A stretch of DNA of 64,000 bases from Bacteroidota bacterium (GTDB lineage: Bacteria; Bacteroidota; JABWAT01), in contig JAFLBE010000006.1 of the NCBI GenBank assembly GCA_017303995.1, forward strand, positions 32,737-96,736. The letters run 5' to 3'. Below the pieces are notes generated by a model. That model did no database searches. It was not told the DNA's origin and worked only from the letters and a program-made list of their open reading frames with translations. How positions within the stretch are numbered: position 1 is the first letter of the stretch; each line of letters begins with the position of its first letter. A program made the position numbers and the translations under genes. This document shows positions 28,207-60,739 of the stretch, one piece after another.

Positions 28207-28246
28207 AATTGTATTTCTCTGCGTGTTCAGCGCCTCTGCGGTAAAG
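28207..28246 (+). repeat. Solo copy of the ATTGTATTT-CTCTGCG..CAGCGCCTCTGCGGT repeat
   Basis: Sequence is attgtatttctctgcgtgttcagcgcctctgcggtaaag. It matches the reverse complement of 58684-58712 and the 59282/59339 repeat units. Confidence 0.8.
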
Positions 28247-30149: not shown

Positions 30150-30300
30150 TTTAAAAACCTTGAATTGAATAACTTAAACACAGAGACATACAGGAGTTTA
30201 ATTTCAGTGAGTTACACTGAGAAATTAATTCTAATTTTTAAAAAAAAACTCTGTGATACCCTGATTGTAATTCTCTGTGTAACTCTGTGGTTAAACGAAT

Positions 30301-55469: not shown

Positions 55470-55677
55470 CTTTTTCCCGCGCCCAAGTAAGGATACTTGC
55501 CGGGTTAAAAGATTTCGCAAAAGCTCTTTTCACCACAGAAGATACAGAATGAACAGAAAGGGAAATGAATTCGGGTTTAAACGGTTGAATTTAATTTTCC
55601 GTGATTTCAGTTATTTCTGTGGTAAAATGGTTTTCTTTCCGGCTGGACTTCTGACGCGCTTGGGAGCGGGAGAAAAG
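55470..55677. repeat. Nested inverted-repeat element of about 208 bp
   Basis: The outer inverted repeat is tttttcccgcgcccaagt (55470-55487) against cttgggagcgggagaaaag (55659-55677), matching at about 17/19. The inner inverted repeat is caccacagaa (55531) against ttctgtggta (55614-55623). Confidence 0.7.
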
Positions 55678-56844: not shown

Positions 56845-56974
56845 GATTTTCCTTATATGTTATAATTTCGATTTTACCGCAGAGGCACACCCAAGCAACT
56901 TCGTTGCGCGGGTCTAATGAGAGGATGCAGAGTTTTAAATGCTTTTTTAGGGTAATGGGAGCAAGAAAAGAGTG

Positions 56975-57634: not shown

Positions 57635-58675
57635 TTATTCCGGTTCCTGCTGACTTAAACAGTGAAAACTTCCCAATCCCCAGATAATGTCAACGGAATC
57701 GAGTCCGATAACCTTCCGGTCTTTAAAAACTGAGGACAAAATATCCAGGGCCTGATCGTCCTGTTTACATCGGTAAGTCGGAACGATGACGGCAGAATTG
57801 GCGATGTAAAAATTGGCGTAGGATGCGGGCAATCTCTGATCTTCAAAAATAATCGAATCCGGCATGGGGAGTTCGACCACATTCATTTGTTTTCCGGATT
57901 CCAATCGCATTTTATTCAGTTCTTTCAGGTTGTCCTGAAGAATGTCATAATTCTCATCTTTTTTGTTGGATTCAATAACGGTAACGACGGTATCATGATT
58001 TACGAATCGGGTCAGGTCGTCGATGTGTCCGTCTGTATCATCGCCCACAATGCCGTCACCCAGCCAGAGAATGTGATCAACAGCGTAATAATCCCGCAGA
58101 AATCCTTCAATTTCATCCTGATTCAGATGCGGATTCCGGTTCGGATTAAGCAAACAAGCAGAAGTGGTCAGTAAAGTTCCTTTTCCGTTAAATTCGACGG
58201 AACCGCCCTCCATGACGATGCCGGGCTTGAAAACCGGGTATCCGAATTTTCGTCCGATTAAAGTAGGAATGATATCATCCAGATCGTAAGGCGGATATTT
58301 ATCACCCCAGGCGTTGTAATCCCAGTCAATGACGATTTTAGGTTCAGGTGCGGAAGGATTCACCAGAAAAGCCGGACCATGATCCCGGCACCATGCATCA
58401 TTCGTCGGGAAGGGGTAAAATTCAACTTTCGAAAGATCAGTTCCATTGGCAGAAAGGTACTTCAAAGCGTGATTTTTCATGGCGTCATCAGCCACGTTGA
58501 TGCAAACCCGTTCACCGGTTGCGAGTATTTTGATAAAGTCAGCATAAACCGGATAAATCGTATCGATCTTCCCCGGCCAGGATGCTTCTTTGTGCGGCCA
58601 GGAGAGCCAGGTTGCAGAGTGACGTTCCCATTCAGCAGGGAACCGGTAGCCAAGAGATTTCGGAGATGTATTCAT
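57635..58675 (-). CDS. aguA: Agmatine deiminase
   Basis: YRFPAEWERHSATWLSWPH...WCRDHGP...C-terminal GSFHCLSQQ (catalytic Cys context). Confidence 0.85.
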   Translation of the reverse strand: MNTSPKSLGYRFPAEWERHSATWLSWPHKEASWPGKIDTIYPVYADFIKILATGERVCINVADDAMKNHALKYLSANGTDLSKVEFYPFPTNDAWCRDHGPAFLVNPSAPEPKIVIDWDYNAWGDKYPPYDLDDIIPTLIGRKFGYPVFKPGIVMEGGSVEFNGKGTLLTTSACLLNPNRNPHLNQDEIEGFLRDYYAVDHILWLGDGIVGDDTDGHIDDLTRFVNHDTVVTVIESNKKDENYDILQDNLKELNKMRLESGKQMNVVELPMPDSIIFEDQRLPASYANFYIANSAVIVPTYRCKQDDQALDILSSVFKDRKVIGLDSVDIIWGLGSFHCLSQQEPE

Positions 58676-58683
58676 TTTTTATT

Positions 58684-58727
58684 CACCGCAGAGGCGCTGA
58701 GAGCGCAGAGAAAAACACAGAGAAATT
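58684..58727. repeat. Left inverted repeat of the GxxExxY cassette (caccgcagaggcgctgagagcgcagagaa plus acacagagaaatt)
   Basis: 24 of 29 positions match the reverse complement of 59282-59310. Confidence 0.8.
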
Positions 58728-58795
58728 CGTTTTATAGTTAAATTCAAAGACAAAAACTTGAGGCAGATTTTTAATAAAATTGTGTTTTAGTATAA

Positions 58796-59188
58796 TCAAA
58801 AATTATTGACAAGTCGTTTTATTCCGGATTTCAAAACCGGAACATTGAAATTGATTATAAGCCCAAGTTTTTTATTTGCAAGGCGTAAATAGGTAATTAA
58901 CTGAGCATCGAAAATGGGAATCAGGTTTTCAACTGATTTCAACTCAAGAATGATTTTATCTTCAACCAGAAAATCCATATAAAAATCTTTGCCCGTTGGA
59001 ATTCCTTTGTAAATCACAGGAATTGGAACCTGGGTTTTATATTGAATCTGGTTTAATTCAAATTCCTTTTCAAGACAAACCTGATAAACAGATTCCAAAA
59101 GTCCGGGTCCTACCTGTTTATGTACTTCGATGCAGGAATTAATGATTTTTCCTGAAAGTTGATTATAGTAATCCTGATCAAACTGCAT
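58796..59188 (-). CDS. GxxExxY family protein (PD-(D/E)XK nuclease-like)
   Basis: 130 aa with the GPGLLESVY signature, plus DFLVEDKIILELK (the D...E.K nuclease-like motif). Confidence 0.8.
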   Translation of the reverse strand: MQFDQDYYNQLSGKIINSCIEVHKQVGPGLLESVYQVCLEKEFELNQIQYKTQVPIPVIYKGIPTGKDFYMDFLVEDKIILELKSVENLIPIFDAQLITYLRLANKKLGLIINFNVPVLKSGIKRLVNNF

Positions 59189-59204
59189 TTACTATTCTAA
59201 ATAA

Positions 59205-59372
59205 TATATTTAATAAGTTGTATTTTCTCTACATTCACAGCGTCTCAGCGGTCGAATTTAATCAATAAATTGTATTTGAAATTCTCTGCGTTCCCAGCGT
59301 CTCAGCGGTCGAATTTAATCAATAAATTGTATTTGAAATTCTCTGCGTTCCCAGCGTCTCAGCGGTCGAATT
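59205..59372 (+). repeat. 57-bp tandem repeat, about 3 copies (ttctctgcgttcccagcgtctcagcggtcgaatttaatcaataaattgtatttgaaa)
   Basis: ctct anchors lie at 59227, 59284 and 59341, an exact 57-nt period. Copies 2 and 3 are identical over 34 nt. The array ends 3 nt before the aguB stop. Confidence 0.9.
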
Positions 59373-59375
59373 ACG

Positions 59376-60248
59376 TTAATCGATGAACCGTTTCAGGATA
59401 GGATCGTACGAATCGATCCTGCGGTCTCTTAAAAACGGCCAGTGAATCCTGTACGAATTGGTTTTGCTTAAATCCAGGGTTTCTACATGGATTTCTTCTT
59501 TATCATGACTGGCTTTGTACAACAATCTTCCGAACGGATTTGAGATAAACGATCCGCCCCAGAAGTTAAGTTCACCTTCAAGTCCGACACGGTTTACCGA
59601 AACCACATGAACGCCGTTGGCGACGGCATGTCCGCGCTGAATGGTTTGCCAGGCGTTATACTGTTCATCGTTGGTTGCTTCATCCTGTGAGGTGGCCCAG
59701 CCGATAGCAGTCGGATAAACAAGCAGATCAGCACCCATTAACGCTGTGATTCTTGCTGCTTCAGGGTACCACTGATCCCAGCAGATCAGGACGCCGATTT
59801 TGGCGAATTTCGTTTCAAAAACTTTGTAACCCAGATCGCCGGGTGTAAAATAAAATTTCTCGTAAAAGGAAGGGTCATCCGGAATGTGCATTTTCCGGTA
59901 TTTCCCGAGGTACGTTCCATCAGCATCCAGAACGGCGGTTGTGTTATGATACAATCCTTCCGTCCGTTTTTCGAAAAGGGATGCCACGATCACCACACCC
60001 AGTTCTTTTGCTACTTTTCCCAGTTCATCAGTTGATGGACCCGGAATTGGTTCAGCCAGATTGAAATTGTCATAATCTTCAACATCACAGAAATATAGTG
60101 ACTTGAATAATTCCTGAAGAACGATGATCTGAGCACCTGCTTTTGCTGTTTCCCGGATTTTCAGAATGGTTTTTCTCATGTTTTCTGCAGGATCCTTTGA
60201 ACAGGAAACCTGAATCATGCCCACATTGACGAGTTTTTCCTTCGCCAC
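59376..60248 (-). CDS. aguB: N-carbamoylputrescine amidase (carbon-nitrogen hydrolase family)
   Basis: The nitrilase-superfamily Glu/Lys/Cys triad contexts are LQELF, YRKMHIP and GVLICWDQWYPE. I chose the GTG start at 60248 (aagagg 6 nt upstream); the TTG at 60284 is the alternative. Confidence 0.85.
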   Translation of the reverse strand: MAKEKLVNVGMIQVSCSKDPAENMRKTILKIRETAKAGAQIIVLQELFKSLYFCDVEDYDNFNLAEPIPGPSTDELGKVAKELGVVIVASLFEKRTEGLYHNTTAVLDADGTYLGKYRKMHIPDDPSFYEKFYFTPGDLGYKVFETKFAKIGVLICWDQWYPEAARITALMGADLLVYPTAIGWATSQDEATNDEQYNAWQTIQRGHAVANGVHVVSVNRVGLEGELNFWGGSFISNPFGRLLYKASHDKEEIHVETLDLSKTNSYRIHWPFLRDRRIDSYDPILKRFID

Positions 60249-60494
60249 AACAGTCCTCTTTTCAAATTCAGTTAAAACCTGCAAAGGTAGGAAATTGACA
60301 GATTAAAGGGAAATGAATGGCAGATAAGGGTTAACCACGCCCAAGCTGAAGCACGGGTCTTTTTGAAAAAACACGAAGGACACGAAAGGGGAAAAAGGTG
60401 AGTCTAAATAAAATGCAAAAAGGAATTTTAAAGAAAAAGCACCTGGTTTCGTCCGGAGTATGTCTGTTGGTTTCCTTTAAATTTGTGGCCGGAC

Positions 60495-60652
60495 GAATGG
60501 AAGGTTTGGCATTTGAGAATCCGTCAGCTAAAGCAGACGGCAATAATATTTATAAAATTGAATGGTGACACAGGCATTTAATTGCCGTCTGCTTTAGCTG
60601 ACGGTTCATTTGAATGATCAAGAATTCTGGGTTTTAACCCAAACTTCCATTC
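60495..60652. repeat. Long inverted repeat with a perfect 24-bp core stem
   Basis: ccgtcagctaaagcagacggcaat (60521-60544) is exactly complementary to attgccgtctgctttagctgacgg (60581-60604), leaving a 36-nt AT-rich loop. The outer arms are gaatggaaggtttgg (60496-60510) and ccaaacttccattc (60639-60652). Confidence 0.85.
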
Positions 60653-60681
60653 CCGTAACCCGTAATTCGTGACCCGTAACC
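60652..60681. repeat. Heptad tract (cccgtaa cccgtaa ttcgtga cccgtaa cc)
   Basis: Seen directly, about 60 nt upstream of selU. Confidence 0.9.
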
Positions 60682-60739
60682 ATTCCGTCCCCGGTATTTT
60701 AAAATTTCGTATCTTTACAATTTACTTTCTGCAAAATCT

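Follow-up and report, generated by a model that had tools for sequence, protein, structure and literature searches.

What is a small gene of the GxxExxY family doing between an aguB-like and an aguA-like gene, both of the polyamine pathway, with short words in inverted arrays on either side of it? We take up this question for a 64,000-nt stretch of DNA (the window) from an activated-sludge Bacteroidota MAG, whose genome measures 4.31 Mb at 41.5% GC. The genes aguB and aguA adjoin, aguB first, in 76 of 80 Bacteroidota loci, and most of these 76 relatives have an empty gap of 4-200 nt between the two genes. In the window the gap is 703 nt long and is filled by the GxxExxY cassette. A first-pass annotation of this DNA had placed a 130-aa GxxExxY gene on the same strand inside a gap of about 700 bp, and the profile matches and the measured gap bear this out. 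The three genes in the row are as follows.

59376-60284, minus strand: aguB-like gene, N-carbamoylputrescine amidase family, the upstream host gene (CN_hydrolase, PF00795; top NCBIfam match TIGR03381)
58796-59188, minus strand: GxxExxY gene, 130 aa (TIGR04256, E 4e-42; PF13366, E 2e-40)
57635-58675, minus strand: aguA-like gene, agmatine deiminase family, the downstream host gene (PAD_porph, PF04371; top matches agmatine deiminase)

The host genes are called aguA-like and aguB-like because both matches score under the NCBIfam equivalog cut-offs. Promoter and terminator scans gave no signal beyond the shuffle expectation.

The cassette and its arms

The GxxExxY protein scores 143.3 bits against TIGR04256 (cut-off 35) and 138.3 bits against PF13366 (cut-off 22). 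The latter is its sole Pfam match, with no GIY-YIG domain, and Pfam and NCBIfam profile searches find no HUH (Y1) transposase domain in the cassette. Thirteen homologues all share the PD-(D/E)XK core residues, namely E32 (the glutamate in the GxxExxY motif), D72, E82 and K84, and the AF2 model, which is confident (pLDDT 91.7), has an alpha-beta-beta-beta-alpha-beta core. The nearest solved folds in Foldseek are Cas4, lambda exonuclease and the nuclease domains of AdnAB, which are only modestly similar (TM about 0.5, E about 4e-3), and these are nucleases working on ssDNA or DNA ends. A sequence search of the PDB returned no relative of the protein, and neither PADLOC nor PHROGs gave a family match. 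The family is large and multi-copy across bacterial phyla; a survey of the PD-(D/E)XK superfamily lists the function of PF13366/TIGR04256 as unknown (PMC3424549), and a literature search found no functional paper on it.

The arms that enclose the gene are unequal in number. On the upstream side of the gene, the repeat search of the window finds three tandem 57-nt units, each beginning TTCTCTGCGTTCCCAGCGTCTCAGCGGTC on the plus strand, and a single arm adjoins aguA.

59339-59395: unit 3, its arm the same as that of unit 2
59339-59372: outermost upstream arm, in unit 3, TTCTCTGCGTTCCCAGCGTCTCAGCGGTCGAA on the plus strand and ACCGCTGAGACGCTGGGAACGCAGAGAA in the gene sense
59282-59338: unit 2, with an arm as in unit 3 and 25 nt of AT-rich spacer, AATTTAATCAATAAATTGTATTTGAAA
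59225-59281: unit 1, nearest the GxxExxY gene, with arm TTCTCTACATTCACAGCGTCTCAGCGGTC (3 mismatches)
58681-58724: arm adjoining aguA, TTCACCGCAGAGGCGCTGAGAGCGCAGAGAA with CACAGAG behind it as a fourth word
58687-58693, 58695-58701, 58704-58710 and 58716-58722: the words in the aguA-side arm

An arm consists of three CGCNGAG words at a spacing of 8-9 nt with the outer end TTCACC/ACCGC. Three tandem copies had been described on one side of the gene, and they prove to be the 57-nt units, two of whose arms are identical and one of which has 3 mismatches (shuffled sequence matches 0 times in 100). The two ends had also been said to pair as an inverted repeat at 24 of 29 positions, and the same relation is recovered here, the inverted arm at 58685-58714 being 80% complementary to the tandem-unit arm across 30 nt. 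The first arm begins 5 nt past the aguB stop, and the last ends 6 nt ahead of the aguA start codon. In the source samples the Logan unitig depth is about 2x across the identical 57-nt units. In L085, a strain sequenced in other runs and 98% identical, two units are present, a difference that could be explained by short-read collapse. Public sludge and wastewater contigs compared with the locus gave no alternative junction and merely stop within the 57-nt repeat. As for a target-site duplication, TAA stands on either side of the arms in the window copy and nothing consistent was found among relatives.

In its general form, the cassette is a minimal PD-(D/E)XK nuclease gene lying between inverted arrays, each made of three words of 7 nt (C-R-C-N-N-A-G), with the conserved outer end (TTC)ACC(G/A)C.

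Dispersed arms, paralogues and word classes

A Hamming scan with the arm ACCGCAGAGGCGCTGAGAACGCAGAGAA detects 47 copies in the genome at no more than 7 mismatches, against 0 in the reversed-genome control, and none of the 47 lies within an ORF of at least 150 aa. Eight convergent pairs, with loops of 40-513 nt, are found among them, and about 29 copies are solo, so the earlier proposal that the termini persist as solo repeats is supported. Only the GxxExxY gene at aguB-aguA uses this arm, and about 45 copies are gene-less, either solo or in hairpin pairs. The dispersed copies differ at 0-7 of 28 bases, which argues against a recent burst. GxxExxY remnants were sought inside seven gene-less arm pairs and none were found; other word arrays are nested there. 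In genome G000, the gene-less CGCAGAG arm pairs at C1:19791-20227, C42:14946-15293 and C42:28977-29277 hold CACAGAG arrays and GC-rich palindromes, one word family being nested inside arms of another. In the same genome an arm subtype ends in CGCAGAGCGG(G/A)GGGATTTTTT (for example at C78:5317, C42:59532, C83:1168 and C54:324); a GC-rich palindrome, for instance GTAGAGGCGCGATTCAATCGCGTCTCC, often comes after it, and this looks like a separate, second small repeat family.

Four gene-less elements of this kind lie in the window.

28215-28242, minus strand: solo arm of the same family, ACCGCAGAGGCGCTGAACACGCAGAGAA, 2 mismatches to the consensus, with the inner flank AATACAATTT in common
56873-56940, plus strand: degenerate arm copy, with the outer end TTTACCGCAGAGGCAC retained, a small GC hairpin interrupting it and GCAGAG at the far end
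55531-55623: hairpin of the ACAGAA word family, in which CACCACAGAAGATACAGAATGAACAGAA pairs with TTTCAGTTATTTCTGTGGT
30179-30292: hairpin of the CACAGAG word family, the family found beside the GxxExxY paralogue at C84:9066

The first-pass annotation had listed all four as related ORF-less copies, with mixed success. Its copy at 28207-28246 is a true member of the arm family; the one at 56875-56940 keeps the first word and the terminal GCAGAG but not the rest of the arm; and those at 30179-30292 and 55531-55623, which had been taken for decayed copies, are instead hairpins of the same class built from other word families.

Word arrays as such are abundant. A strict scan of this genome yields 196 arrays of many families, against 9 in the shuffled genome. 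Period-7 arrays are very common across G000 (AAGTTAT/AAGTTAC, GGGTTAC, CAGAAGT, TAGAAG, AATGGT, AGCTAA), and some of them are long perfect tandems; all these word types are those beside four-helix-bundle genes.

Five GxxExxY genes are present in this genome, each inside a phased-word inverted repeat, with CGCAGAG words at one gene, CACAGAG at two and CAGGAT at two. The expectation that all paralogues would share the flanks of the aguB-aguA copy thus holds for the packaging, since all five lie in word-array inverted repeats, but not for the sequence, the other four having analogous words of their own. Nor is the packaging specific to GxxExxY: five of the six four-helix-bundle (PF05635) genes of this genome, which are unrelated, are boxed alike with other words, heptamers such as GGGTTAC and AAGTTAT.

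In five related genomes, 17 of 17 GxxExxY paralogues have word-array inverted repeats. The tree of 20 GxxExxY proteins from these genomes splits exactly by the ending of the arm word (AG 10/10, AT 6/6, AA 4/4), and the ending requires 2 state changes on this tree, compared with 5-10 in 500 label shuffles. The protein clade co-varies with the word class of the arms, a pattern that co-inheritance alone could also produce. Because single genomes hold several word classes, the word is not set by the host background.

The arrangement is also found far from this genome. Among unrelated metagenomic GxxExxY loci, 42 of 74 (57%) have a significant flanking inverted repeat, compared with 13 of 385 genes drawn at random from this genome (about 3%). 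At least two CRCNNAG words are present in 35 of those 42 loci and the outer end ACC[AG]C in 25, and the word spacing in metagenomic arms is 8 or 9 nt in 47 of 63 cases. These shared words, outer ends and spacings indicate that the sequence is constrained beyond pairing alone.

To relate arrays to genes at the level of whole genomes, we counted CRCNNAG x3 arrays, GxxExxY genes and four-helix-bundle genes in 148 Bacteroidota genomes. The arrays number 0-188 per genome, and the backward-pattern control gives about 0-2. GxxExxY is present in 30 of the 31 genomes with at least 10 arrays and in 53 of the 117 others (Fisher p = 3e-8, kinship ignored). With four-helix-bundle genes controlled, the partial rank correlation between arrays and GxxExxY is 0.44 (p = 2e-8, kinship again ignored), and the converse partial correlation, between arrays and four-helix-bundle genes with GxxExxY controlled, is 0.06 and not significant. 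Exceptions exist: G032 has 18 arrays and no GxxExxY, and 38 genomes have the gene and at most 2 arrays of the CRCNNAG pattern. G000 and G002 each carry about 14-24 arrays of a family whose gene-bearing copy is missing there, which implies that arrays outlast their own gene, at least in the short term. G001, of the same genus, has zero CRCNNAG x3 arrays, whether A-type or G-type, and a frameshifted GxxExxY gene at the junction; G000 and G002 have 35 arrays each.

History of the aguB-aguA junction

The first-pass annotation had suggested looking for an empty site in relatives, and at this junction empty, remnant and replaced states are all found. At 15 loci from other Bacteroidota families, the gap holds a conserved four-helix-bundle gene (MAFKFEKLIVWQKA...) between GTCCGGAAG/CTTCCGGAC word arrays that begin at the aguB stop codon. 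Cassettes of this class thus recur at the junction.

aguB-aguA gap of L005, L014, L015, L025, L026, L033, L036, L042, L044, L046, L050, L061, L066, L068 and L070: four-helix-bundle cassette

Some relatives have a gene-less hairpin in the gap, and in L023 it is occupied by an unrelated ORF (about 133 aa), with no word arrays. GxxExxY is present at the junction in G003; G004 has lost the gene and has kept the aguA-side arm at the same position. Within the family of the window, the junction cassette is therefore old and vertically inherited.

Two alleles of the junction gene can be distinguished. Allele A is carried by the window, L085 (98% identical) and L087 (69%), and allele B by G002 (locus L081) and G001 (locus L082), which are 72% identical to each other with the frameshift in G001, and by G003. 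The two alleles are 50-57% identical, and the proteins of the window and L081 52-54%. The aguA DNA places the window, L085 and L081 in one clade (93-96%) and L082 and L088 in another (95%), so that both alleles occur in both clades. Between the window and L081 the flanking DNA is 93% identical and similarity stops at the edges of the spacer; between L082 and L087 the flanks and outer arms are 88-98% identical, with 95-98% over the stretch that runs to the outer arms and takes them in, and the interior is only about 55-65% identical. The change at the junction is an in-place replacement and not a visible transposition. In clade II, fine word type and gene allele do not go together. A paralogous donor within G002 was considered as the source of the swap and rejected, as no A-type gene occurs elsewhere in G002. 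We also discarded a rule by which each allele has its own fine word: alleles of clade II have arms in common, and the two array families are present together in G000 as well as in G002.

Arrays of the G type (CGCNGAG) are found only in G000 (24) and G002 (22) and are absent from G001, G003 and G004, and those of the A type (CGCNAAG) are found in G000, G002, G003 and G004. For 20 G-type loci of G002, the corresponding sites in G000 have the following states.

13 of 20 loci: orthologous G-type array
3 of 20 loci: decayed or diverged
2 of 20 loci: replaced in the exact position by an A-type array, the flanks being nearly identical
2 of 20 loci: unclear

The two A-for-G replacements (L195 compared with C43, and L189 with C45) involve a solo arm in one case and, in the other, an entire hairpin pair including the loop. 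Most arrays are thus stable, but occasionally one is exchanged as a whole unit, as at aguB-aguA. The earlier idea of a small selfish or mobile cassette can be kept in part: gene and arms form one heritable unit, and relatives have empty, remnant or replaced sites, but the unit is old and vertically transmitted, and is swapped in place with no visible transposition.

A proposed nuclease-repeat pairing

The architecture, the unit of inheritance, the co-variation of clade and word, the association across genomes and the exact in-place replacement are direct observations, and from the association and the co-variation we infer that the GxxExxY protein binds or cuts the word arrays. The explanation we favour is that the cassette is a nuclease with its cognate repeats, comparable to Ssn/NTS or REP/RAYT, which acts on DNA and whose predicted mRNA stem would make the insertion tolerable; it would be a widespread and apparently undescribed nuclease-plus-repeat element. 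The nuclease would recognise its own class of word array on DNA, most likely in single-stranded or hairpin-extruded form, and nick it. Repair would then copy from another copy of the array, by ectopic conversion or homing, and this copying would both maintain the arrays and, at fixed sites between genes, exchange an array or a cassette as a whole, a logic like that of Ssn/NTS and REP/RAYT with a different nuclease fold. In an aguB-GxxExxY-aguA transcript, the modelled pairing of the arms would bring the aguB stop near the aguA start, which may be what makes the insertion tolerable to the operon. We put this explanation at somewhat short of an even chance, because arrays persist without their own gene, orthologous arrays are mostly stable, and word and allele are uncoupled in clade II. 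A more specific version, in which GxxExxY is the PD-(D/E)XK counterpart of Ssn and RAYT, the AG, AT and AA word endings in arrays phased at 8-9 nt are each read by the matching protein clade, and this reading drives homing-like in-place replacement at fixed intergenic sites, is more doubtful. If true, it would explain why alleles only 52-54% identical alternate at one junction in two sister species clades.

The spacer can also be read at the level of RNA. RNase III might cut the stem formed by the arms and excise the cassette RNA, in the manner of an intervening sequence (IVS), and the GxxExxY protein would then have no relation to the arms. In the predicted fold of the spacer RNA, the outermost arms form the closing stem in both the MFE and the centroid structure (MFE -171 kcal/mol, z = -4.3), a stem that would span the whole cassette and directly abut the stop codon of aguB and the start codon of aguA. 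Cassette genes are mostly co-oriented with their neighbours, and the gene found at the junction of 15 other Bacteroidota loci is of the S23p/PF05635 type, the same protein family as in real IVSs (PMC4990558). Selection on a transcribed stem is not what the arm mismatches suggest, however, since they lack a sense-strand G.U excess (44 sense and 65 antisense G.U, with 87 transversions). Moreover, about 29 of the 47 copies are solo and cannot form a stem, and the ones flanked by co-directional genes show no strand bias (10 sense, 9 antisense); the words and the outer end are conserved past what pairing requires, and the word class follows the protein clade. No rRNA or other Rfam match was found at the cassette, with only sub-threshold miRNA-like noise on another hairpin. 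We regard excision of this kind as unlikely to be the main explanation; it may form a second layer of the favoured one. Because there is no G.U excess and no strand bias, and the words are conserved past pairing needs, we read the constraint as acting at the level of DNA or protein recognition, the mRNA stem being a plausible secondary benefit. The relevant substrate would accordingly be DNA rather than RNA, and a role of the mRNA stem in tolerability is suggested by the fold prediction.

It is less likely again that the arrays are generic REP-like repeats kept by the host as terminators, mRNA stabilisers or topology sites, where GxxExxY genes land or survive with no functional link. The excess of strict word arrays of many families over the shuffled genome (196 against 9), the nesting of arrays within arrays, the stable orthology of most arrays between G000 and G002, and the persistence of arrays in genomes with no gene-bearing copy are all in keeping with such repeats. 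They do not account for the different word classes that paralogues within one genome carry in accordance with their protein clade, or for a CRCNNAG abundance that follows GxxExxY and not four-helix-bundle genes, and the lack of such arrays in G001, of the same genus, indicates that they are not a fixed host feature. That the small protein or the hairpin belongs to the agmatine pathway, regulating the expression of aguB and aguA, is close to refuted. It is favoured by nothing more than the same-strand position inside the operon, whereas most of the 76 relatives have the empty gap, in others it is occupied by an unrelated four-helix-bundle gene, by a hairpin with no gene or by an unrelated ORF, the GxxExxY gene is frameshifted in G001, and paralogues are found in unrelated contexts.

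The proposed pairing of a nuclease with cognate repeats has its closest counterpart in Ssn/NTS (SRM), in which GIY-YIG site-specific ssDNA nucleases are framed by a dispersed cognate repeat; the repeat stands on both sides of 42% of Ssn homologues, and the gene is present in 81% of repeat-rich genomes (PMC11893778). Similar to Ssn, GxxExxY is a small stand-alone nuclease gene between short repeats that also occur as tens to hundreds of gene-less intergenic copies, and repeat and gene co-occur (57% of loci flanked, and 30 of 31 array-rich genomes with the gene). The two differ in superfamily, PD-(D/E)XK as against GIY-YIG, and in the repeat, which is three phased 7-nt words in inverted arms here and a single hairpin motif in Ssn. 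No link to transformation is known for GxxExxY, and its nuclease action on the arms is putative. With REP/RAYT (REPIN) systems (PMC3733652), the cassette shares a gene between inverted short repeats that also occur between genes as solo units and inverted doublets, and the coexistence of several repeat families in one genome. RAYT, however, is a HUH tyrosine transposase, a domain absent from the cassette; each REP is a palindrome tagged by GTAG or CGTC, whereas the GxxExxY arms are phased word arrays; and GxxExxY has one gene per word class and several paralogues per genome.

The ORF-bearing IVS in helix 45 of the Coxiella burnetii 23S rRNA, which holds an S23p ORF (PMC4990558), resembles the cassette in having a small ORF in the loop of a long terminal-inverted-repeat stem (predicted in our case), in a transcribed region whose host function is kept, and a four-helix-bundle gene of the S23p type has the same packaging at the aguB-aguA junction of other Bacteroidota. 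In contrast to this IVS, the GxxExxY cassette lies between protein-coding genes in an mRNA operon and not in 23S rRNA, its cargo is a nuclease, and its arms are conserved in sequence with many solo copies. Homing endonucleases and MITE or TIR elements offer parallels in the in-place replacement at a fixed site with breakpoints at the element ends, and in gene-bearing (autonomous) and gene-less (non-autonomous) copies with common termini. Unlike these, the cassette has no recognisable transposase and no clear target-site duplication, lies outside any intron or intein, and has diverged rather than near-identical copies.

The link between family and motif provides a directly testable substrate, namely three C-R-C-N-N-A-G words at a spacing of 8-9 nt with an ACC outer end. 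If the protein cuts these arrays, it would add a third nuclease fold to the design of a small nuclease with dispersed cognate repeats, would explain common intergenic repeats and insertions into operon spacers in Bacteroidota and other phyla, and may provide natural nucleases with different short-word specificities. For annotation, such cassettes and their remnants should not be read as regulators of the operons that host them.

The spacer upstream of aguB, at 60285-60739 of the window, is a pile of further small repeats.

60366-60392 (approximate): CACGAAG array
60520-60606: hairpin with perfect 24-nt arms and sub-threshold miRNA-like Rfam matches
60650-60690 (approximate): heptamer array of the GGGTTAC type
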